Position numbers and translations under genes: made by a program
In this document: positions 25,107 to 38,054 of the stretch, piece after piece
How the letters are laid out: every line of letters begins with the position of its first letter
Position numbering within the stretch: the stretch's first letter is position 1
Source of the DNA: an uncultured Planctomycetota bacterium
Lineage (GTDB): Bacteria > Planctomycetota > Planctomycetia > Isosphaerales > Isosphaeraceae
Assembly (NCBI GenBank): GCA_963823665.1
Contig: CAWGMQ010000005.1
Coordinates: forward strand, 1,120,001 to 1,184,000
Direction of reading: 5' to 3'
Length of the DNA stretch: 64,000 bases
Notes under the pieces: model-generated
What the model was told of the DNA's origin: nothing
What the model saw: only the letters and a program-made list of their open reading frames with translations
Database searches by the model: none

Positions 25107-25697
25107 TCAACGCACGACAGGTCGAAGCCACTCGGAGATGGGTTCCTGGAGATGCCGCAGTTGCCCGTGTTCGAAAACGGCCACCTGACGGTAGGGGACA
25201 TTCAGGTCGCTGTTGTCGTACACGAGCACATGAGGTAACCGCGGGACGGACGCCTGGAGGTTGGCGAGCGTTCGAGAAAACCTCGATCGAAGCTTGTCGT
25301 CGGGAACATCATGCCCACCTTGCGAAACCCGCATCGCCACACGCTCAGTCGATTGATCGGGGCTGGAGAGCCCGATGTAACACAACACCACGACGTAGCC
25401 GCATGCCGCTGCTTCGGCAAGAAACGCGATCTTGTCGCCGACCGGATCGGAGAAAACGGTCTCAAAGACGAAACTCTCCCCACGACCGATCAATGTCTTT
25501 CTCAAGGCATCCGCCAGGCGAGCCGCCTCGTACGGTTCGACCGCGAGTTCGGCGGCCAGCACATCCGCGTTGACGAAACGCAAGCCGGCCGAGGCAAGGT
25601 GCGCGTGGAAGAATGTGGTCTTCCCCGCACCATTCGGACCGGCAATCGCCACAACGATCGGCCGACGATCAAACTCGGCGAGCTCCATCAAGGCCAT
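25107..25697 (-). CDS. Zeta-toxin-like / AAA P-loop kinase toxin
   Basis: IAGPNGAGKTT, FVNAD, FETVFS and RVSQGGHDVP motifs. Confidence 0.88.
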   Translation of the reverse strand: MALMELAEFDRRPIVVAIAGPNGAGKTTFFHAHLASAGLRFVNADVLAAELAVEPYEAARLADALRKTLIGRGESFVFETVFSDPVGDKIAFLAEAAACGYVVVLCYIGLSSPDQSTERVAMRVSQGGHDVPDDKLRSRFSRTLANLQASVPRLPHVLVYDNSDLNVPYRQVAVFEHGQLRHLQEPISEWLRPVVR

Positions 25698-26062
25698 GGG
25701 ACCGCCTGGAATTCCCGACCAACAAATCGCCCCACCGTTCGCTTGCCATCGCCATCGATCCGGACAAGCAGGCCCGGCGAGCCGGGAACTGACTGATAGT
25801 GCGGAAACGGCCGAGACTCGAGGTATTCCGCGACACGGCGGCGCCCCGCAGCCGAATCAACCGAGGCCAAACACTTCGACAGCGGAATTGCCGCGCCAGC
25901 CCGCCGTAGGGCGAGTGCTCGGGAGCCTTCGAGCAATGGTTCGATCGCTCGGCCGAGTTGCGCCCAGAACTCGATCTGACCAGCAATCGACCTCTCTGCG
26001 ATCTCTGCGGTCAGCCGAGCATCGAGAATGAGTTCGTCGGATATTTTGACGGGCTGGCTCAT
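25688..26062 (-). CDS. ParD-like antitoxin
   Basis: MSQPVKISDELILDAR...RSIAGQIEFWAQLGR; overlaps the start of the toxin gene. Confidence 0.85.
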   Translation of the reverse strand: MSQPVKISDELILDARLTAEIAERSIAGQIEFWAQLGRAIEPLLEGSRALALRRAGAAIPLSKCLASVDSAAGRRRVAEYLESRPFPHYQSVPGSPGLLVRIDGDGKRTVGRFVGREFQAVPWP

Positions 26063-26207
26063 AACGTCATGGTAGCATTTTGCTACCGAATGATCAAGTC
26101 GTCCACGCGCGGGTTTCTGCGGAGCGGGAAGAGACGTTAGAAACCGATGCACATGAACGAATTCAACTCTGCCACGGCGGAGAAGGGGCGGCCGTCACCG
26201 GGGCCAT

Positions 26208-29200
26208 CTACATCTGTTTCTCCGGCTGCAATGCACTCCCGGCCAGAAGCGCGTCGGCCTCTTTCAGGAGCCTTTGCGCTTCTTGATTGCTCGCCCAGTT
26301 CGGCTTCTGCGACGTCTCGCGGAGCTGGGTCAGACTCGCCCGCGCCTGGTCGGGCTCACCGATCTGGAACCGGGTCATGGCCAGGAAGGCCAGGTCGGCT
26401 GGAACCGAACCTCCCTCGGCCTCCCGGTTGAGCGTTTCCGCGCGCGTCAGCGTGGTCAGGGCCTCCTGGTACTTCCCCAGGCGGTACTGGGCCATCCCGA
26501 GGGTGGTGTGGTAGGAGCCCACGAACGGCATGAGACGGCAAGCGATTTCCGCGCGCTTTACTGCCAGCCCGTACGCGGAGGGTTCCGCGCCCGGCCGACC
26601 GGCCACGGCTCGGCTGGCCCGGTCGAGGTGCAACGGCAATTCCACGAATCGCTCCGCCAGGGCCAGCGCTTCTTGGCGTACAGGCTCGCTAAGCGCGGGA
26701 TTGGCGCGGAGGGACGCGAGGACCTCAGACCGGAACAGAGGCTTGGCGAAGAGAGACCTCACCTCCCGCTCGGCCTCCCGACGCACCCGGTTTCGCCAGA
26801 CCGGCTCGACCAGGGTGAGGGCTCGCTGACGCACGGCATCGCTGATGGCGCAATCTCTGACCCGGGCCGAGACCGCCTCCGGGGTCGGCGATTGGGTGAA
26901 CAGGAACTTGACCAGGCTTGCCGCCTGCCGCTCGTCGCCAAGTTCCGCGTCGAGGGGGATTCCTTCCCAGATCGTCACGACTCTGTCCCCGCTGGCCGCA
27001 AGGCGCCGGCCGCCGCGACCGAACGCTATACGGGGAACCTGGGCAGGCGCCCCGCGCAGGGTAAGGATTTCCTGTCCGGTGAGCGCGTCCCAGAGCTTCA
27101 CTTCACTATAGAGACGCTCGCCTCCCTTGCTCGTCCCGCCCGCGGCGGTGACAAGCCGCCGGCCGTCGGGACTGTACATCAACCAATGGACGGCGCTCGT
27201 ACCTCCGCGAAGAGTAAGGCACGTCTCTCCCGTGACCGGGTCCCAGACCTTGACCGACCCGTCTTGACTCGCGGCGGCGAGCCGCTTGCCGTCGGGACTG
27301 TACACGATGCGCGTGACAACTCCCTCGAAGCTGGGCAGCGTGAGGACTTCCTGTCCCGTGGCCGCCTTCCAGACGCGCACGGTTCCACTCGCACTCGTGG
27401 CCAGGCGCTCGCCATCGGGGCTAAAGGTCACGCTGGCGAGCCCCGGGTCGCTGTCGCGCTCGGTTCGCTCGGGCAGCGTCAAGACCATCTGCCCTTTGCT
27501 CAGGTCCCAGATCATGGCCTCGCCTGAGACGGGTCGTCCTCTCCGCGCCGATGAGCGACTGATCGAAGCGAGCCGCTGGCCGTCGGAGCTAAAGGCCACA
27601 GCCGAGATGGAGGCGGTGTGTCCGCGCAAACAGAGGATTTCAGAGCCGTTCGTCGCATCCCAGACGCGCACGGTCCGATCCACTCCGACAGAAGCGAGCC
27701 GCCCGCCGTCGGGACTGTACGCCACGCCCAAAACGGAATCGAAATGCCCGATCATTGTGAAGACCTCCACCCCCGTTGTGGTGTCCAGGACGTGCAAGAA
27801 TGGACCGCTGGCGATTGCCAACGTTCGACCGTCCGTGGCAAACGCCACATCAGCTACGTTGCCGAAGTTCCCGCTCAAGGCGACGGCTTCCGCAGCCGCC
27901 GTTGCATCCCAGAGCTTCACGGTGCCGTCCCCGCCCCCGGAGGCCAGTCGCCATCCGTCCGGGCTGAACGCCACACTGGCGACGGTGTCGGTGTGGCCAT
28001 GCAAGACCAGGGCCGCATCCCCGGTGGTCACGTCCCAGACCTGCACGATATTATTGCCGGCCGCGGCCGCAAGCCGCCCGCCGTCTGGGCTGAATGCCAG
28101 ACCGCCGATTCCCTGGTTATTGTGAAACGCCTGAATCTCGCTTCCCGTGTCGGCGTCCCAGACCTTGGCTCCATCGTTGCCGCCGGAACCGAGCCGTCGG
28201 CCGTCAGCGCTGTATGCCAGGCAATTGAGCGTGTTCGGTTGCTTGCTCAAGTGAATGATCTCTTTTCCGGTCGTGGGGTCGCAGACGCGGACCGTACGAC
28301 CATCGATGAACGCAAGCTGGCCCTGCCGCTTTGCCCCGGCAGGACGAAAGGCGAGAGCGCTCATGGTACTTCCCCATTGCCCGGAATCGGTCCCGGGTAT
28401 GCGCACGAGTTGCCTGCCATCGACCGCGTCCCAAACCTTTACCTCGCCGGGCAAAATCCCTCCTCCCGGACTGACGCCTACGGAAAAGGAGGCGAGCATC
28501 CGGCCGTCCGGGCTGAACGCCAGGCCTCGCACGGGGGCGGCGTGCGCGGGCAGGGTAGACAGCTCACGTCCGTCTGCCGGGTCCCAGATCTTGATTTCGC
28601 CCGGAGTGTGCACACCTCCATTTGCCGAGGCCAGCCGCCGGCCGTCGGGACTGAATGCCACGCAGGATACGAGGTCCTTGTGCCCGGTCAGGCAAAAGCG
28701 CTCCCGGCCCGTCGCGACATCCCAGACTTTGACTTCTCCACGTTGGCCAAAATTGCCGCTGGCGGAAGCGAGCAGCTTGCCGTCAGGAGAGAACGCCACG
28801 CAGCGCACGGGCGCGGAGTGGCCGGGCAAGGTGCTCATGTCGAGGCGGCACAGGCGCTTCAGGTGGTACCACTCGAAGCTTCGCAGGTCCGGCTGTTCGG
28901 GTGAGCGCGGCTCGAGGACGTCGAGCCGTTTTTCGAGAGAAGCGATCTCGCCCTGTTCCCAGTCTTTCTGGGCAAGGGTGCTTTCTGCGGCGTACCAGCG
29001 GAGGTCGCTCCGCGCTTTCTCCGCGCGTGCGATGCGGGCGCTTGCGAGTGCGTCTGCCGCGCGGTTGCTCGCCTGGATCGCGTAATACGAAGTGCTGGCC
29101 ATGCCGAGCAAGAGCGAGGCCGCCACCGCGCCGAGCAAAAGCGCAACTACCGGGTTGCGCCGGCACCATCGCCATGCGCGCTCCGGGCCGGAGATGGGCC

Positions 29201-30401
29201 GGGCGACGATCGGTAGGCCGGCGCGGAAGCGGCGGAGGTCGTCGGCCATCGCCGCGACGTCGGGGTAGCGCCGATCGGGATCTTTTTGGAGCGCCTTGAG
29301 GCAGATCGTCTCGAGGTCGCCCGGCATGCGGGGGAGGAGCTGCGACGGAGCAACGGGCTCGGCGGTGCGGATCAGGTCGAGGGTGTCGATGATGGACGAC
29401 CCGCGAAACGGCGGTCGTCCGGTGAGCATCTCGTAGAGGGTGGCACCCAGCGCATACTGGTCGGCGGCGGGGCCGGCCCTCTCGGCACCAGTGGTCTGTT
29501 CGGGGGCCATGTAGCTCGGCGAGCCGAGGATCCACCCGGTGCCGGTCTGGCCGGAGTCGGCCTCCATCCGCTTGACCAGGCCAAAGTCGGCGATCTTCGG
29601 CGTCCCGTCGCCGGCCAGGAGGACGTTCGCCGGCTTGATATCGCGGTGGACGATCCCGCGGCGGTGGGCCACGCCCATGGCCCGGGCCAGCGTCTCGACG
29701 ATCTGCGCGGCGGCGTCAGTGGGCTGCGGTTTGCCGGCGATCCGCTCGGCCAGGCTGCCGCCCTCGAGGAACTCGAGCGAAAAGTAGGGCAGGCCGTCGC
29801 GCTCGCCGATCTCGAAGATCTTGACGATGTTGGGGTGGTCGATGGCGGCGACCGCGCGGGCCTCTGCCTCGAACCGGGCCAGGTCGTCCGGTTGTGCACC
29901 CGCGCCGGCCTTGATCATCTTCAGCGCGACCAGGCGGTCGAGCCGGAGGTGCCGCGCCTTGTAGACGACCCCCATACCGCCGGTGCCCAGTACGCCCAGG
30001 ACGTCGTAGCCTGCGATCCGGGGCAGTTCGCGGCGCTCGCGGCCGCCGGACAATCGGGACGCCAATTCCGTATTCGCGGCCGCAAGACCAGGAGAGTGCA
30101 CGAAGCGGTCGGTGGCATCGGGGTCGTAGTCAGCCGTCGCGTCACGGCCCGGGCCGGTCGTGGCGTCGGCATCCGCGTCGGATGTGGACTCACGTTCGAC
30201 GTGGGTGCTCGCGCCACGGTCGAGGAACGTTGTTGGGTCGCCCTCGGAAACTATGGGCGCGTCACGATCCAAGGGTGCGCTCGCGGCGCGTTCGATATGT
30301 GTGGGAGCCTCACGGTCGAACTTCGTGGGGACGTCGCGCTCGCGGTCCTCCGCATTCGGATTCGAGGCCTCCTCTGGACGACCTGCCATGAGTGTTCCCA
30401 C
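26208..30401 (-). CDS. Ser/Thr protein kinase with TM segment, about 14 WD40 repeats and C-terminal TPR
   Basis: GTGGMG, VALK, HRDIKPAN, DFG and YMAPE motifs; repeated FSPDG...VWD units. Confidence 0.95.
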   Translation of the reverse strand: MGTLMAGRPEEASNPNAEDRERDVPTKFDREAPTHIERAASAPLDRDAPIVSEGDPTTFLDRGASTHVERESTSDADADATTGPGRDATADYDPDATDRFVHSPGLAAANTELASRLSGGRERRELPRIAGYDVLGVLGTGGMGVVYKARHLRLDRLVALKMIKAGAGAQPDDLARFEAEARAVAAIDHPNIVKIFEIGERDGLPYFSLEFLEGGSLAERIAGKPQPTDAAAQIVETLARAMGVAHRRGIVHRDIKPANVLLAGDGTPKIADFGLVKRMEADSGQTGTGWILGSPSYMAPEQTTGAERAGPAADQYALGATLYEMLTGRPPFRGSSIIDTLDLIRTAEPVAPSQLLPRMPGDLETICLKALQKDPDRRYPDVAAMADDLRRFRAGLPIVARPISGPERAWRWCRRNPVVALLLGAVAASLLLGMASTSYYAIQASNRAADALASARIARAEKARSDLRWYAAESTLAQKDWEQGEIASLEKRLDVLEPRSPEQPDLRSFEWYHLKRLCRLDMSTLPGHSAPVRCVAFSPDGKLLASASGNFGQRGEVKVWDVATGRERFCLTGHKDLVSCVAFSPDGRRLASANGGVHTPGEIKIWDPADGRELSTLPAHAAPVRGLAFSPDGRMLASFSVGVSPGGGILPGEVKVWDAVDGRQLVRIPGTDSGQWGSTMSALAFRPAGAKRQGQLAFIDGRTVRVCDPTTGKEIIHLSKQPNTLNCLAYSADGRRLGSGGNDGAKVWDADTGSEIQAFHNNQGIGGLAFSPDGGRLAAAAGNNIVQVWDVTTGDAALVLHGHTDTVASVAFSPDGWRLASGGGDGTVKLWDATAAAEAVALSGNFGNVADVAFATDGRTLAIASGPFLHVLDTTTGVEVFTMIGHFDSVLGVAYSPDGGRLASVGVDRTVRVWDATNGSEILCLRGHTASISAVAFSSDGQRLASISRSSARRGRPVSGEAMIWDLSKGQMVLTLPERTERDSDPGLASVTFSPDGERLATSASGTVRVWKAATGQEVLTLPSFEGVVTRIVYSPDGKRLAAASQDGSVKVWDPVTGETCLTLRGGTSAVHWLMYSPDGRRLVTAAGGTSKGGERLYSEVKLWDALTGQEILTLRGAPAQVPRIAFGRGGRRLAASGDRVVTIWEGIPLDAELGDERQAASLVKFLFTQSPTPEAVSARVRDCAISDAVRQRALTLVEPVWRNRVRREAEREVRSLFAKPLFRSEVLASLRANPALSEPVRQEALALAERFVELPLHLDRASRAVAGRPGAEPSAYGLAVKRAEIACRLMPFVGSYHTTLGMAQYRLGKYQEALTTLTRAETLNREAEGGSVPADLAFLAMTRFQIGEPDQARASLTQLRETSQKPNWASNQEAQRLLKEADALLAGSALQPEKQM

Positions 30402-30467: not shown

Positions 30468-30713
30468 TTATCCGTTCCCCATCGCACAACTACAAACGCC
30501 CGTGTCCGCGTTAACTCCGCATGTATCATTCAGGCTACAGCACGTGGCAACACCGTTCTCGCAAACGCAAGACGTGGGCGTGCTTCCCGAACAGTTGACG
30601 CTGACGCCTCTGGCAGGTTGGATGCCGGCGATCGAGTTGCCGCGGGAGGGCCCGCGCGTTGGCCAGGAAACACTCCCACGGAGAACCGCGGGTGCTTGTA
30701 CGGGAAGCTTCAT
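30468..30713 (-). CDS. Cys-rich precursor peptide 3 (81 aa; PatE-like leader, 8-Cys core)
   Basis: AGGAG RBS; MKLPVQAPAVLR...GIQPA followed by RGVSVNCSGSTPTSCVCENGVATCCSLNDTCGVNADTGVCSCAMGNG. Confidence 0.85.
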   Translation of the reverse strand: MKLPVQAPAVLRGSVSWPTRGPSRGNSIAGIQPARGVSVNCSGSTPTSCVCENGVATCCSLNDTCGVNADTGVCSCAMGNG

Positions 30714-30762
30714 GTCCGGTCTCCTTTCAAATGGACCCCTGGAAAAAACGTGCGCGGATGGC

Positions 30763-31011
30763 TTATGGATTTTTGCAGACACACCTGCCACCGGGAGCTT
30801 CAGAAACACCGTTCGAGTCGCAGCATTGGCATGCACCAGAAGTGCAGCGCCACACGTCTAGTGGAGAGGTGCACTTTCGATTGTTTGGGTCACCTTGACA
30901 GATGTTAATATCGTGTCGAAACGACGCAGAGATGCCATGGCCGGAAGAACGGCTGGCCGGCCAGAAGTTTCCTGTACGAACCACGGCTCCGGTTTGCAAG
31001 GGAAGCTTCAT
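30763..31011 (-). CDS. Cys-rich precursor peptide 2 (82 aa)
   Basis: AGGAG RBS; MKLPLQTGAVVR...GISAS followed by FRHDINICQGDPNNRKCTSPLDVWRCTSGACQCCDSNGVSEAPGGRCVCKNP. Confidence 0.88.
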   Translation of the reverse strand: MKLPLQTGAVVRTGNFWPASRSSGHGISASFRHDINICQGDPNNRKCTSPLDVWRCTSGACQCCDSNGVSEAPGGRCVCKNP

Positions 31012-31060
31012 GTCCGGTCTCCTTTCAAATGGACCCTTGGAAAAACGGTGCGCGGATGGC

Positions 31061-31309
31061 CTATACATTGCAGACACACCTGCCACCGGCTTCCTGATGA
31101 ACACCCTTCAGGCCGCCGCAGCATTGGCACGCACCAGAAAGGCAGCTTTGCACCTGCAGGGGAGGGGTGCACTTTCGATTGCTGATGTCTCCTCCACAGA
31201 TGTTAACGTCGGTTCGAAATGACGCGGAGACGCCTTGGGCGGAAGAACGGCGGGCCGGCCAGGAGTTTCCTGCACGAAGGACGGCTGCGGTTTGCAAGGG
31301 AAGCTTCAT
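31061..31309 (-). CDS. Cys-rich precursor peptide 1 (82 aa)
   Basis: AAGGAG RBS; MKLPLQTAAVLR...GVSAS followed by FRTDVNICGGDISNRKCTPPLQVQSCLSGACQCCGGLKGVHQEAGGRCVCNV. Confidence 0.88.
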   Translation of the reverse strand: MKLPLQTAAVLRAGNSWPARRSSAQGVSASFRTDVNICGGDISNRKCTPPLQVQSCLSGACQCCGGLKGVHQEAGGRCVCNV

Positions 31310-31355
31310 GTCCAGTCTCCTTGTAGGTGCCCCGGCGCGGTGGGCGGCGACAAAT

Positions 31356-33217
31356 TCAGCGGGTGAACCATGAGCGCGTCGGGCCGACGGTCACCGGCAC
31401 GGTGTCGCTCACGTCCACCGTAAACCGATAGACCCGGCGCACCGTCTGCACCTGCCGCTCGGGGTAGAAGAAATACACCTCGACATCCCAGCAGTCCGAG
31501 CCAGGCCGGCAGATCGGGCTGCGAACCACGTTGATGCTTTCCAATTCCATCGTTTCCTTGAGGGCGGACTCGTAGACCTTGTCGAATGCAAACGCATTCG
31601 TCGCCGCGAAATTGATCGCCCGGTCCTGCGGGGCCAGGCCCAGGTTGCGCAGCCCGTGGTAAACGCGGTCGAGGAAGTTGCGGACGCCCGCCGTGCGCTG
31701 GGCGTGCGCATCCTGCTCGTGCTACGGAGCCTCCGCCGCGGGCGCGGGGCCGGCCACCGCGTCCGCCAGGGCCGCAGTCGTCCAGCTAAACATGCCACGC
31801 AATTCCGGCACGATGACGGCAACCACCTGCCCCGACAGTAGCGTGGCCTTACCGGCGACGACGCCCGCGATCGATACGCGCTCGACCCCCTCGTCCAGTC
31901 GCTCGCGCAGGAACCGCCGCAGTTCCTTGTACGCATCGGCGGCGAACGGACCTTGCGGCCGGACCGCGTAAATCGCAGTGCCGTCGAGGGCGAGGGTCCA
32001 TTCCACGGCGGCGGCGTTCCAGGGGTGCTCGTCGAGATGGGCCAGCATCCGCCGGGCGTCGAACGCCTGGACGCGTTCAGCACTACTCTTGCCGGCGACG
32101 CCGGCGATCGTCTGGGCGAGGCCGTCGAGGCGGGCTTCGCTAACCAGGTCGTACCCGATCTGGCCGAGAGCATAGACGAGTTGCGGCGCCCCGGTCTGAC
32201 AACCGCAAGCGGACGGTTGGACTGCCGCGGGGCGAACCGCGTTTTCGGTCGGGGGCAGTGGGATCGGCGAGGCCGCGGCCAGGTTGTCTTCGTTTGGCAC
32301 CGCGTCGCTTGGCGGGGCGGTGGAGTCGGACATCGTCAGCATACTCCGGGTGAGGATTGTTACGGCTCCATTGACGTTCAACCGTCCAGCCAGGAGACGG
32401 TGGCAATCCGTTTCAAGCTCCTGAGCACATCCCAGGGCACTGCGCAATAATGCATCCCTGACGAGCGGCGGGCTCGGCTGCCGGCCGCGTTTTCGCTGCA
32501 AACTCAAAAGCAGGGCCGCGACTCCCGAAACCACTGCCGTCGCGTAACTCGTGCCGATCCCGCGCCTGTCCCACCACCGGGTTGCGCGCCAAGTATATCC
32601 ACGCCGGGCGCCAAAATCCCCTGAATTCCGTAGAGTCCGCCCCAATTGCTGGAACTGACGGGTTCCCCCTGCGCATCCATCGCGCCGGCCGCCAGCACCG
32701 AGTCGAGGGCGGCGGGGACGTGGAGGCACGCGCAACCGTCGTTGCCCGCGGCGGCGACGATCAGAACGCCGCGCCGGGCGCAATCGCGGACCACGTCGGC
32801 CAGCAGCGGGTGGGCAGTTCCCGAAGGGGAAAACTGTCCGCCGCTGATGTTGACGACATGGGCGCCCTGCTGTACCGCCTGGGTAATGGCCCGTGCGAGA
32901 TCGAGTTGCGAACAGAGCTGAATCGACTGCTCACCGACGGACTGAAAAATCGGCACGAGAACGCCTCGGCAGAGCGGCGCGAGGCCCGGCACGAGCCCGC
33001 CGTGCTGGCCGAAGATCACGCTGGCGATGTGCGTACCGTGCCGGCTGGCGGGCCCGAGGTCGGCCGTCCCCGGCACCAGGGTTTCCACCTGCGTGAGGTT
33101 CGCAGCTTTCAAACTCGGGTGGGAGAGCTCAACCGGGCCGTCCAGGACCGCGATGCAGACCGCGGGATCGCCGAGGGTCTCGGCCCAGAGTTCTCGGATT
33201 CCGGAGAGGAGGCCCAT
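31356..33217 (-). CDS. PatA/PatG-family cyanobactin maturation protease (S8 domain + PatG C-terminal domains); frameshift near 32565 and in-frame TAG at 31722-31724
   Basis: Triad IAVLDG / HGTHIAS / GTSYAT; SQLDLARAI, AAAGNDGC and LVYALGQIGYD motifs; beyond the TAG the frame continues NFLDRVYHGLRNLG, DRAINFAATNAF, SPICRPGSDCWDV and YRFTVDVSD. Confidence 0.9.
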
Positions 33218-33365: not shown

Positions 33366-36300
33366 TTATTCACGCCGCACCGCCCGCGTGACTCCAGGCA
33401 GACTCGGGGCCAGACGGAAGCCGTAGAAGTTCGAGCGGTCCGACGGGACGTCCGTGTGGCGGATCGCCGACCGGCAATACGCCGCGACGGTGCGCCAACC
33501 GCCGCCACGGCTCACGCGGCGCGCGCCCTCATCGGCGCCTCGCGGATCGGTGATCGCTTCGACACCATAGTCCCCGACCCAGTCGTGGCTCCACTCAAAC
33601 AGATTCCCGTGCAGATCAAACAACCCACGAACGCTCGGACGCAATTCCCGTGGCGGATGGGCGTGCTTGCCGCTGTTCTCCGCGAACCAGCCAAATCGTC
33701 CCAGCAGGCTCACCTCGCCGCCAAAGCCGTAAGGCGTCCGCGCTCCAGCACGGCTCGCCACCTCCCACTCCGATTCCGTCGGCAATCGAAATCCTCGTCG
33801 ATCCAGCTCCAGTGGCCAGTTCCGCGGGGCCCAGTTCGCCTCGAGATTCGGTTCGCGTGGATACCTCGCCTTGTCCAGGGTCTCGGGGGCCGGATACGAC
33901 TGGTCTCTTTCCGGCAAGCCCGACTGCTGGCCCAGCCACCGGCAGAAGCCCACCGCGTCGTACCAATCCGTACCGAACCCGGCATCCGCGGGTCTTGCGT
34001 CGTATTCCTGCATCAGTTCCGCGTATCGTGGCGAAAAAGCTCTCAGCTCCAGAAGGGTGATCTCACGATCCAGCAGCGCAAACGGGCGCGTCAGCGTGAC
34101 GCTGTGCCGGACTTCGTTTTTTTGCCGGTCCGGTTCGTCATTGACCGAGCCGACGTTGGAGGCGCCCGCTGGAATTACGATCAACGTATAGTAAAACGTC
34201 TCTTTCACCAGCTCCGTTTCCGGCCTCGGTGGCGCTGCGGGCGTTACCGTGATCGCCAGCGTGAACCACTCCCGGTCAGGCGCATACGGCACCACCGTGC
34301 GATCCACCTGACGCACGACCTCCGCCTGCCTCCATTGCCGCAGCAGCCAACCCGCCGCGCCGTGGACTCCTGAACTCGGGTCATGGCGGTACCAGCCGGC
34401 CAGTTGCTCAAGAAGCGCTACCCGATGCGATTCGGGAATCTCCTCGAGTGAAAACTCCCCCAGTGCCAGCAGCAGGGCATACCGAGTGTTTTTTGGATAA
34501 CGATCTTTCGGAGCGATGCTGACCCGTTGCAGACAGTCGAGCAGCGCATCCACGGCGACTCCACGGGGGCGGCAGCGGAAGATGAATTGCGTGAGCGCCT
34601 CCGGATCGTCGGTCATGTCAAACACCGGCAGCACCTTCTCGCGCTCGCCCAGCCGCAGCAAGGTGACTGCGGCGTTCGCACGACGCTGGCCAAAGGGTAT
34701 GCGCTCTACGGAGCCCAGTTCCACCGATGGCGGCGTGGCGGCGATCCTGGCGAGATCCTCGAACGTGGCAGGCGCGGGGCCCGCGGCCACGATCGGGTAG
34801 AGCACGGCGAATTGCTCCGGCGTGGCGACGGCGAGTAGCTGGGACAACTTCGGGATATCGCCCGCGGCGTAATCTGCGAACGCGTTGGCGGCGGAGACCT
34901 GCTGAGCGACGGTCGCCTTGGCATCGGCGAAGATCCGCTCCAGATCCAGGAGCAGTCGCGCGCGAATCGGACGCAGCGCGTCGCGCAGCAGCGGCTGGGA
35001 CTCGGGATTGGACAAGACCAGTTGCTCGGCCACGAACTTCAAGTTCTGCTCGCTCCACGAGGCCGCCTCGGAATCGGGAACGTAATCCGAGAGCGCCACC
35101 GCGGCGCGGAACCGGCGAAAGGCCTCGGCTTTCTCGTCCCGCAGGATGGCCCGGAGTTTTTCCGTGAGCTCACCCGCGTAGGGACGCAATTGCGCACGAA
35201 TCGGGCCGATGTAAACGACCTTGTTGGTGAGCAATTCTTCAAGCAGTGGTTCGACGAGCGCCCGGTCGCGGGAAACCAGCGCGAGGCGAGCATGCAATTG
35301 CGCGCGCTTCTCGTCGACCGTTCTTGCATTGGCGGCAAGCAGCGGCAACAGATAGGTCGCGGCAACCTCGGGGTTCGCATCGAGTTCTTTGACAATGGCC
35401 GGCAACTGATTGGGTTCCGCACTCACCAGGCGTCCCACCAGCCCTTCGATGCGGGTCGCTTCCTGCTCTCTGGCAACTTGGGTGCGAACCACTACTCCGA
35501 TGGAAATCAATGCGACGAGACCAGTCATAGCGAGCGCAGATCGGAGACTGTGCAACCGGGTCGCCTTGGACATCATCACCCGCTGCGGTGAGGTCCACTT
35601 TTTCGGATCTGTCAGCGTGCGGATGCTGAGCCATTCCCAGACTGTCGGTAGATGGCGGTTCTCTGGTTTGGCGTTCCACAAGCCTGAGCGTTCCGCCAGT
35701 TTCAGCTCCGCGCGGCCCCGGCGAGTTTCCTTCTGCTTGCGCGTCAGCCATTCTCGCAACGAGTGAACCAGATAGTCGTGAGTGAGCTGGTAGTATTTCT
35801 GCCCTGGCCTGGTCTGCGGCGCGGAATCGCCGTTCGCCTCTTTCCCTTCCGGGTCGGTCGGCGTGATCAGGCGGATTTCGCTGTCGAGAATTCGGATCAG
35901 GTCGTCGAAGTCGTTGGGGCGGCTACCATAGCCGGAGGCGTCCAGCAATTCTTGGCGGGACCTCATCTGTCCCTTGATGTCAGTGCCGCTTTCGGGAAGC
36001 AAGGCTTTGAGCACCGCTTGGGCGGCGGTCTGGTGCAGTCTACGCTCGGGGGGCGCGGTCGAGGCGCTGAATGTTTCCTCGAGGAATGTGACACCCACGC
36101 CCCTCGTGCCGCCAACTTCTTTGAGCGTGGAGGGAGTCCACGGTTTGCCTTTTATCATCTCGGCGTAGAGCGCCAACCTGACGGAAATGACCTTCCCTTC
36201 TTCCGCCAGTCCACTCACCGATTCCTTCAGGAATTCGTTCTGCTCGCTCGAAGTATCCGACGCGTTCTCTGGGAGCTTGCCGAATGCCCGGCCGAATGCC

Positions 36301-38054
36301 GCCAGCACCTTTCGGGCGTGGTCAAGGTCGAAGAGATCGACGGCCGCAGAGTTCTGCCCTTCGAGGAGACAGATCTCCAGACCCCTCGTGAATCGCGTGG
36401 CGGCCATCCAAAAATCATCGCGTACCATCACGATCGCCTGGAGATGCTCGCCATCGCACTGACGAAGCGCGGCGACCAGTTCCGTGTTCTCCTCACGTCG
36501 CCTGGCAAAGAGCCATTGCTCGAACTGGTCCAGGACCAGCAGCACCTTGCGCTCGGATGGCAACACGTGACCTCGCCGCACGCTTGCCAGCGAATCAACC
36601 AGCCCCGATCCTCTCGGCAGTAAAGGACAAACCTTGCGCAGACCCTTGAGCAATCGAGCTTCGGTGTCTTCTGCGTTCGCCTCGATGTAAGCCGCATGGA
36701 CGTGCTTGCCGAGCCGGGGCAAGAGTCCCGCCTTGACGAGCGATGACTTGCCGCAGCCCGAGGGACCATAGATCAGCCCGACCTTGAAGGTCAGGTCGGG
36801 ATCGATCTGCTCGATCTTTCGCTTCCAGAATTGGATGCTGTCTGGCAGTCCGTCCCGGTCCCGCGGTCCGGGAAGCAATTCCACGAAGAAGTCGGCATCA
36901 TGCTCATCGAACGATCGCAGGCCTCTTGGGACGATCTTGATCGGCCACTGGTCGGAGGCCGATTGCTTGTCGGAGGCCGATTGCTTGGAGGTCGGTGGGA
37001 CCGGTGTCACCACATCGGTTGAACCGGGTGGCGGGCTGACCGGAGCGAACGAGGCGGCAGGCGCGACCACTCCCGTGACGGTCGGGAGAAAGGCCCGCAG
37101 ATCCTCAGCCATGTCACGCCCGGTCGTGTACCGGTCCGCCGCTCGCTTGCTCATCGCCTTCAGGCAGATTCGTTCCAGTTCCTTGGGAATCGTGTCGTCG
37201 ACCTGGCGCGGAGGGCGGGCTTCGGTCGCGGCGATGAGATCCAGCAGTTCGTTGCGCGCTTCGTCTTTGTCTTGAGCTTTGGCTATGAACGGTCGTCGCC
37301 CGGTCAAGAGCTCGTAGAACACCACGCCCAGGCTGAAGATGTCGGACCGCCCATCAACACGATGCCCCTCGCCACGAGCCTGCTCGGGACTCATGTACGC
37401 AGGCGTTCCAGCCAGCCCACCACCGATCCCGAAGTCCTCGTCCGTAAGCGCGAGACCGAAGTCGGCGACGAACGCCTTCCCTGAGCCATCGATCAGAATA
37501 TTGCCGGGCTTGACGTCCCGGTGGACCAGGCCGTGAGTATGAGCGTGATGAAGGGCTTCGGCGACAGTCGCCACCATTGCCGCCGACGCGTGAAAACTGG
37601 GGCGCGCTTCCTTGATCCTGGCGGCAAGGTCGCTACCTTCAATGAACTTGGACACCACGAAACAGGGTCCGCCCTCCATGCGACCCACGTCATGCACCGG
37701 CACGATATGGGGATGGTCCAGCCTGGCGAGAATTCGGGCTTCGACCAGAAACGCTTCGGCATCCTCCGCGCGCGTGATACGCTCCGCGTTTGGCACCTTG
37801 ACGGCGACCGGGCGATTCAGATCATCGTCGTGTGCAAGATACACCGTCCCGAACCCGCCCTGACCCAGCCGCTGGATGACGCGGTAGCGCCCGATCTTGG
37901 AGGGATCGCCTTCCCTGGAGCCACCCGAGCCAGGCGCGGGCAGTTGCGAGCCGGCCGTTTCCGCGACGCTCCTTGTCTCATCCGAGGACCGACTCGCCGC
38001 GGCACCCGGCGATTGAGATGCTCCCGGTTCGGGCGTGCCCTTCGTCTCATCCAT
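33366..38054 (-). CDS. Ser/Thr kinase + STAND-like NTPase + FGE-sulfatase domain protein
   Basis: GQGGFG, HRDVKPGN and DFG (kinase); GPSGCGKSS, LDQFEQ and LTHDYL (NTPase); FRLPTESEWE and GLFDLHGNLFEW (FGE). Confidence 0.93.
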   Translation of the reverse strand: MDETKGTPEPGASQSPGAAASRSSDETRSVAETAGSQLPAPGSGGSREGDPSKIGRYRVIQRLGQGGFGTVYLAHDDDLNRPVAVKVPNAERITRAEDAEAFLVEARILARLDHPHIVPVHDVGRMEGGPCFVVSKFIEGSDLAARIKEARPSFHASAAMVATVAEALHHAHTHGLVHRDVKPGNILIDGSGKAFVADFGLALTDEDFGIGGGLAGTPAYMSPEQARGEGHRVDGRSDIFSLGVVFYELLTGRRPFIAKAQDKDEARNELLDLIAATEARPPRQVDDTIPKELERICLKAMSKRAADRYTTGRDMAEDLRAFLPTVTGVVAPAASFAPVSPPPGSTDVVTPVPPTSKQSASDKQSASDQWPIKIVPRGLRSFDEHDADFFVELLPGPRDRDGLPDSIQFWKRKIEQIDPDLTFKVGLIYGPSGCGKSSLVKAGLLPRLGKHVHAAYIEANAEDTEARLLKGLRKVCPLLPRGSGLVDSLASVRRGHVLPSERKVLLVLDQFEQWLFARRREENTELVAALRQCDGEHLQAIVMVRDDFWMAATRFTRGLEICLLEGQNSAAVDLFDLDHARKVLAAFGRAFGKLPENASDTSSEQNEFLKESVSGLAEEGKVISVRLALYAEMIKGKPWTPSTLKEVGGTRGVGVTFLEETFSASTAPPERRLHQTAAQAVLKALLPESGTDIKGQMRSRQELLDASGYGSRPNDFDDLIRILDSEIRLITPTDPEGKEANGDSAPQTRPGQKYYQLTHDYLVHSLREWLTRKQKETRRGRAELKLAERSGLWNAKPENRHLPTVWEWLSIRTLTDPKKWTSPQRVMMSKATRLHSLRSALAMTGLVALISIGVVVRTQVAREQEATRIEGLVGRLVSAEPNQLPAIVKELDANPEVAATYLLPLLAANARTVDEKRAQLHARLALVSRDRALVEPLLEELLTNKVVYIGPIRAQLRPYAGELTEKLRAILRDEKAEAFRRFRAAVALSDYVPDSEAASWSEQNLKFVAEQLVLSNPESQPLLRDALRPIRARLLLDLERIFADAKATVAQQVSAANAFADYAAGDIPKLSQLLAVATPEQFAVLYPIVAAGPAPATFEDLARIAATPPSVELGSVERIPFGQRRANAAVTLLRLGEREKVLPVFDMTDDPEALTQFIFRCRPRGVAVDALLDCLQRVSIAPKDRYPKNTRYALLLALGEFSLEEIPESHRVALLEQLAGWYRHDPSSGVHGAAGWLLRQWRQAEVVRQVDRTVVPYAPDREWFTLAITVTPAAPPRPETELVKETFYYTLIVIPAGASNVGSVNDEPDRQKNEVRHSVTLTRPFALLDREITLLELRAFSPRYAELMQEYDARPADAGFGTDWYDAVGFCRWLGQQSGLPERDQSYPAPETLDKARYPREPNLEANWAPRNWPLELDRRGFRLPTESEWEVASRAGARTPYGFGGEVSLLGRFGWFAENSGKHAHPPRELRPSVRGLFDLHGNLFEWSHDWVGDYGVEAITDPRGADEGARRVSRGGGWRTVAAYCRSAIRHTDVPSDRSNFYGFRLAPSLPGVTRAVRRE

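Follow-up and report, generated by a model that had tools for sequence, protein, structure and literature searches.

The window (64,000 nt) comes from a 12-contig assembly totalling 16.46 Mb (completeness 92%) of what is likely to be a soil planctomycete, probably of the family Isosphaeraceae. Its reverse strand carries a run of five genes: a PatA-type protease, three small cysteine-rich precursors and a serine/threonine kinase (Table 1). The initial annotation had described the precursor array and omitted its neighbours, both of which are present, one on either side. The three ORFs it proposed, with start codons at 31309, 31011 and 30713 (298 nt apart), were all found, each having an AAGGAG site ahead of it. 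Close homologues in related genomes indicate that these are real genes rather than chance ORFs, and a profile of the leader matched only these three in the genome, 150 of 779 candidates being scored. Of the array, contigs from sequencing runs cover no more than 30686-30836 and the last part of gene 3. The G+C content of the array is 58%, against 67% in the flanking genes; promoter and terminator scans gave results near chance. Beyond the kinase, at 25107-26152 on the same strand, lie two small genes, for a P-loop protein and a short partner, by eye resembling a zeta-toxin-like and antitoxin pair.

Table 1. Features of the protease, precursor and kinase locus, in window coordinates
Feature	Position	Strand	Remarks
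PatA-type S8 protease with C-terminal PatG_D/PatG_C DUF	31356..33217	-	Pfam and TIGR03895 matches on pieces
Precursor 1, type A, 82 aa	31061..31309	-	M-K-L-P-x-Q box, GVSAS leader end, 8-Cys core
Spacer 1, 49 nt	31012..31060	-	Holds ribosome-binding site of precursor 2
Precursor 2, type A, 82 aa	30763..31011	-	Tandem duplicate of precursor 1; GISAS leader end
Spacer 2, 49 nt	30714..30762	-	46/49 identical to spacer 1
Precursor 3, type B, 81 aa	30468..30713	-	GIQPA leader end, 8-Cys core
Ser/Thr kinase, 1397-aa ORF, candidate receptor	26208..30401	-	Kinase domain, hydrophobic helix, WD40 ectodomain

The spacers were said to be better conserved than the cores, and they are: genes 1 and 2 agree at only 75% of core nucleotides and 88% of leader nucleotides. 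Spacer changes (3 of 49 positions) are also rarer than changes at synonymous gene sites (approximately 13 of 60; p = 0.03). The spacers fold no better than shuffled sequences, giving no stable fold, and in a relative (G446) the type B gene is preceded by a spacer similar to spacer 2. The exact 298 bp period is real as a spacing, but reflects simply how long the duplicated unit (gene 1 and its spacer) is; between genes 1 and 2 there is a 3 nt loop insertion and a 3 nt deletion before the stop codon, the lengths of which cancel. A constrained period was rejected, the periodicity amounting to one tandem duplication.

The cysteine spacings ascribed to the two frameworks hold in all three cores. 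The constancy of the leader is more limited than had been supposed: a first box of around 19 residues is shared throughout, but genes 1 and 2 have just 22 of 30 leader residues in common, and gene 3 shares that box alone (12 of 19 residues with gene 1). The suggestion that cores have been swapped behind a constant leader finds no support in the relatives, since types A and B keep their own leaders in several genomes and ten-cysteine forms bridge the two. Type B is the commoner type among them. Searches with an eight-row alignment returned 38 and 28 homologues, and cysteines were scored in 66 sequences, after three that were truncated, extended or shifted had been set aside; the number was even in 58 of the 66, although the relatives are not independent. 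Both types carry C..C-x6-CC..G-x-C-x-C, and several homologues with ten cysteines have the extra pair of type A as well as that of type B. The optional B-type pair is gained or lost together in 59 of 60 anchored homologues, both cysteines being present in 51, neither in eight and a single one in the remaining sequence. AlphaFold models of both types have four core strands (pLDDT approximately 70-80) and a low-confidence leader. The shared motif, the ten-cysteine forms, the paired changes and the four-stranded folds together make the two frameworks versions of a single scaffold that differ in which fourth pair they carry, and it is likely, from the pattern of cysteines, that four disulfides fold each core. 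The predicted optional pairs are Cys38-Cys61 in type A and Cys49-Cys65 in type B.

The array had also been likened to diversifying toxin or defensin families. A fixed cysteine scaffold with fast-changing loops in genuine precursor genes is indeed what was found, the dN/dS of non-cysteine core positions being 0.77-2.07 in eight same-type pairs. The likeness to defensins, conotoxins and hirudin-type proteins extends to a conserved leader and a small beta fold; however, the leader here is of RiPP type and not a signal peptide, the cores are not cationic (net charges +2, +1 and -2, hence near neutral) and no match is significant. Neither Pfam nor NCBIfam matched the three precursors, PDB sequence searches with them returned nothing significant, and structure prediction followed by Foldseek gave no match to the cores at E ≤ 0.001. 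Fold comparisons, using models that included the disordered leader, produced a best Z of 2.5 in one case and none ≥2 in the other. Type B resembles hirudin at the weakest level (sequence E 7; Foldseek E 5), and the best ESM Atlas scores of 0.76-0.78, one to a DUF5837 cluster, are leads only. The toxin or defensin reading is thus unsupported by family, sequence and fold searches.

The protease gene lies upstream of the array on the same strand, ending 47 nt before gene 1. Its protease domain matches PDB entry 4H6W at E 2.7e-73, compared with E 1e-29 for PatG-type entries, as does that of an intact relative, and the genome, 92% complete, has no PatG_C match besides this gene. Two breaks interrupt it in the assembly: the reading frame shifts near 32565, and a TAG lies in frame at 31722-31724. 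The first of these is probably an error of assembly, as a contig from run X4 (297 nt, otherwise identical) has one extra base at 32565. The TAG corresponds to CAG in three relatives; a contig from run X1, which may be the source sample itself, agrees with it, but only about 20 nt from the contig end, and in-frame stops also occur in three of 150 kinase domains scored from the same assembly. Read-through was set aside given the CAG in the relatives, which makes misassembly or a C-to-T substitution the simpler account. If real, the TAG would remove the PatG_C part and spare the catalytic domain, and the protease of the present strain may in this way lack the terminal portion of its DUF. Further upstream on this strand, at 33366-38054 and ending 148 nt before the protease start, is a large Ser/Thr kinase gene (kinase, nSTAND1 NTPase, one helix and an FGE-sulfatase domain).

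On genomic evidence, the locus has the leader-core precursor and dedicated processing enzyme general to RiPP pathways. It shares with cyanobactin clusters a PatA-type S8 protease with the same C-terminal DUF, hypervariable cores, and leader ends (Table 1) resembling the PatA-like cleavage site, given in PMC10885120 as after G(L/V)E(A/P)S; cutting at these putative sites would leave cores of 52, 52 and 47 residues running to the stop codon. The N-terminal box of three family members also weakly matches the patellamide precursor model, from positions 7-17 onward (E 0.008-0.05), whilst the array precursors themselves match no cyanobactin precursor model at E ≤ 1. Here, however, there is a single protease and no G-type protease/macrocyclase, the sole PatG_C gene being PatA-type; the cores are of around 50 residues with eight cysteines, rather than 3-20 residues, with no C-terminal recognition sequence; and a receptor kinase adjoins. 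According to PMC4663559, every active cyanobactin cluster has genes for A and G proteases and the precursor E as well as B/C genes, hence the array locus is not such a cluster. YcaO had no match in the genome, positive controls having worked, and none in 34 of the 51 genomes searched; thus the products are not cyanobactins, and azole chemistry was rejected for want of a YcaO cyclodehydratase. The search of the genome for PatB gave no match, and its controls were blank too. The system therefore works like the cyanobactin leader-protease system without being a member of that group. Being minimal, a PatA-type protease plus DUF with neither heterocyclase nor macrocyclase, it is well suited to finding the role of the DUF, left open in PMC4259220. 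There, PatG-DUF did not bind PatE' by NMR, and its crystal structure contained a disulfide with the same spacing as the C-x5-C pair kept by the DUF at most loci of the wider family; a redox role would be a guess.

On the other side of the array, the kinase probably starts at ATG 30389, 78 nt after precursor 3. It has intact catalytic motifs and one hydrophobic helix, assigned from hydropathy only, at residues 418-436 (approximately 29094-29150), giving the receptor layout of kinase domain, single membrane helix and ectodomain. In planctomycete kinase-TM-WD40/TPR proteins, which have the same domain layout, PMC11032199 describes the kinase as predicted cytoplasmic and the repeats as periplasmic. 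Amongst 16 loci with A- or B-like precursors, 13 have a same-strand kinase domain starting 366-495 nt after the last precursor; the others comprise one contig end, one divergent kinase and one locus with no kinase. Where the frame is intact, these array-linked kinases have one hydrophobic helix around 290 residues after the kinase start, plus WD40 repeats. The protease is less constant, being adjacent at seven of the 16, a remnant at two, absent within 13-15 kb at six and undecidable at one. Related arrays that have lost the protease keep the kinase, with a protease copy elsewhere in the genome, so the enzyme can apparently work in trans.

As the genome is so rich in kinases, with at least 150 (150 of 542 candidates being scored), the specificity of the association was tested. 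The 99 residues following the helix score 79-189 bits in the ten array-linked kinases, 30-63 bits in nine loci of a different, convergent layout, and at most 36 bits in the 29 closest kinases of the same genome, even though the kinase domains of those 29 are 54-70% identical. The kinase domains of the ten array-linked loci fall into two supported clades, in a tree that included one control row (L233) on the wrong strand. At L215 the precursor (0.60) and ectodomain (0.72 and 0.69) group with those of the window, whilst the kinase domain that separates the two (0.53) belongs with the other clade. Across the ten loci, precursor similarity correlates at 0.74 with that of the juxtamembrane part, 0.58 with the kinase domain and 0.48 with the C-terminal part. 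At the level of sequence comparison, then, the peptide genes track the ectodomain and not the kinase domain, a pattern owed largely to one swap among kin that are not independent. This coupling of peptide and ectodomain is the new part of the finding.

In a reverse test, the juxtamembrane part alone was used as the query, and the 20 best unexamined matches (66-97 bits) were compared with 20 hand-picked weak matches (42-46 bits). Intact precursors were found upstream in 4/20 against 0/20 (p = 0.11), or 6/20 against 0/20 if two frameshifted precursors are counted (p = 0.02); the other 14 related ectodomains, including an own-genome paralogue, lacked a peptide gene. Three weak-match loci had ORFs with cysteine-dense ends but no leader, and no protease was present within the 3.5 kb examined around the reverse-test loci. 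The paralogue (L257:84-1697), which has the closest ectodomain in the genome, has upstream of it an ORF that looks transposase-like by eye.

These observations lead us to propose, at about even chances, that the array encodes protease-matured, disulfide-rich peptides acting as ligands of the WD40 receptor kinase. The operon-like run of protease, A, A, B and kinase would make the precursors; the PatA-type protease would cut them after G-x-x-A/P-S/A, giving cores of 47-52 residues; these would leave the cytoplasm by a putative export step and fold through four disulfides; and the folded cores would then bind the WD40 ectodomain and activate the kinase. The proposal that the kinase is instead a tailoring enzyme, phosphorylating precursors in the cytoplasm, could appeal to the intact catalytic motifs, to serine and threonine residues in the cores and to DolG, PMC12639078 describing a kinase domain in some cyanobactin G proteins; it is the least likely reading considered, the peptides following the ectodomain, the kinase domains belonging to two separate supported clades and the layout being that of a receptor.

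The export step touches on a further alternative, that the cores stay in the cytoplasm and bind metal through free thiols, in the manner of metallothioneins or zinc fingers. Weak points of the ligand proposal are that no transporter or signal peptide was seen, the leaders having no hydrophobic signal stretch, and that searches found neither DsbB nor VKOR. The lack of a signal peptide and of these two proteins would suit a metal-binding role, as would the CxC and CC motifs. We nevertheless regard it as very unlikely, in view of the paired gain and loss of cysteines, the bias towards even numbers, a Kunitz member in the wider family and the link to a domain predicted, as in PMC11032199, to face the periplasm.

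Selection on the array was examined through the comparison of leader and loops on which its supposed diversification turned, with mixed results. Core loops evolve far more freely than the protease, which has a dN/dS of 0.24-0.30 against three relatives, but genes 1 and 2 have values near 1 in leader and core alike, with no significant excess of core changes (p = 0.15). Leader values span 0.33-1.10 in the same eight same-type pairs. With about 30 synonymous sites per pair, relaxed and positive selection are indistinguishable. The expected variation in array length was evident: orthologous loci carry 3, 2, 1 and 1 genes, in the order A, A, B here and A, B in G446, with B alone in G429 and G445. 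The lone B genes carry the upstream sequence of gene 1, which is consistent with loss of type A by recombination between shared 5' ends. The array may grow and shrink by such recombination, so varying the peptide set.

Values near 1 could also mean that the array is drifting after loss of protease function, its place beside the kinase being inherited synteny. The TAG, which replaces the CAG of three relatives and is also present close to the end of one run contig, and the protease remnants at two related loci point the same way. However, all 24 cysteines and all three precursor frames are intact, the protease itself has a low dN/dS, in-frame stops like the TAG recur among the kinase domains of the assembly, and the pairing outlasts both protease loss and the kinase-domain swap. 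Such drift is therefore judged distinctly improbable.

Planctomycetes have hundreds of membrane Ser/Thr kinases with WD40 or TPR ectodomains. Plant signalling by RALF-FERONIA and similar pairs combines cysteine-rich peptides, a subtilase and a receptor-like kinase. Should the ligand model hold, the planctomycete locus would share with these systems subtilisin-family processing, a variable disulfide-rich ligand and a single-pass Ser/Thr kinase with an ectodomain; it differs in its bacterial WD40 ectodomain, in having no Sec signal and in its operon-like gene order, and no homology was seen. A bolder version, to which we give slightly less than an even chance, is that soil planctomycetes possess a plant-like peptide-hormone system, in which diversifying disulfide mini-proteins, matured by a cyanobactin-type subtilase, are private ligands of paired WD40 kinases, and the DUF (through C-x5-C) or the N-terminal box would explain oxidation or export in a family that spans phyla. 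If true, this would give the large families of orphan kinases in Planctomycetota their first ligands, and would be a bacterial counterpart of plant peptide-hormone signalling. The passages seen of PMC11032199 name no ligand for WD40 kinases, whereas the present locus ties one subfamily of ectodomains to the gene of a candidate ligand; the question becomes testable, as the locus provides specific, synthesisable 50-residue candidates for one ectodomain.

The protease and peptide pairing extends well beyond this lineage. PatG_C occurs in 27/121 genomes of the family, compared with 5/401 in a sample of the phylum, and precursor homologues detected with the type B profile are found in 11 of those 27 and in none of the 94 without it. 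Scanning all species genomes yielded 607 confirmed stretches, the best 80 of which span planctomycetes, cyanobacteria, acidobacteria, proteobacteria, Bacteroidota and others; a number of them duplicate loci already in the relatives' set, hence locus counts are not summed. A metagenome scan added three loci. In 61 of the 80 loci the leader pattern identified 102 ORFs downstream of the protease, of which 87 have an even number of cysteines, ten an odd number and five none; on the opposite strand, where 2.7 times more sequence was covered, it gave 20 matches, including true members. At least one genuine gene escaped the pattern, which also picked up a few false positives. A cleavage-like motif, by a loose pattern with no null, was present in 67/90 precursors, and the C-x5-C pair of the DUF is kept in 53 of the 60 motif-matched loci among the 80. 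No model of this protease-peptide family exists in the libraries searched, and no description of the cassette was found in the openly available main texts covered. The family is a large reservoir of disulfide scaffolds from bacteria that no model describes.

One distant locus, in a Bacteroidota record (L162:7161-7448, forward strand), has a leader-bearing ORF with a Kunitz/BPTI core (E 1e-13) beside a PatA-type protease; this alone passed the cut-off when 40 family ORFs were compared with Pfam. Outside planctomycetes a receptor-type kinase lies near the array at only about five loci, so a ligand role cannot hold for the whole family. The Kunitz core, that scarcity of kinases, the slight hirudin likeness of type B and the variable loops on a fixed scaffold would all fit cores that are protease-matured antimicrobial or inhibitor mini-proteins, with the kinase regulating the operon or sensing its product for self-regulation. 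This we consider unlikely for the array in the window, where the cores are near neutral and match no defensin or toxin in families, sequences or folds; moreover, the top ORF clusters of the 80 loci contain no recurring immunity gene or transporter, nor a tailoring enzyme. Sensor and regulator genes recur in six and nine of the loci.

Other arrangements were seen around these proteases. The M-K/R-L-P-x-Q..V-x-R box also stands at the start of a PatB-family protein (TIGR04220, E 2.6e-26) and of acidic, cysteine-poor ORFs beside PatA-type proteases, and may be an address tag that they have in common; the box-bearing loci are L048:1201-1416 on the reverse strand and L140:4094, L154:6424, L156:6411 and L165:7431 on the forward strand. 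In L070-L074, L076-L078, L081 and L082 the protease is followed by a six-cysteine peptide and then a convergent kinase-TM-WD40 gene; the kinase domains of this layout form one clade, and several of the loci have VWA genes upstream. A split form with separate protease and DUF genes (L032-L034, L058, L060 and L065) has cysteine-rich ORFs beginning M-N/K-x-P-G/E-F-x-A and a DUF without C-x5-C. In one proteobacterial genome (L116 and L173/L185), two YcaO genes lie, by coordinates, around 10-15 kb from the protease-peptide pair.
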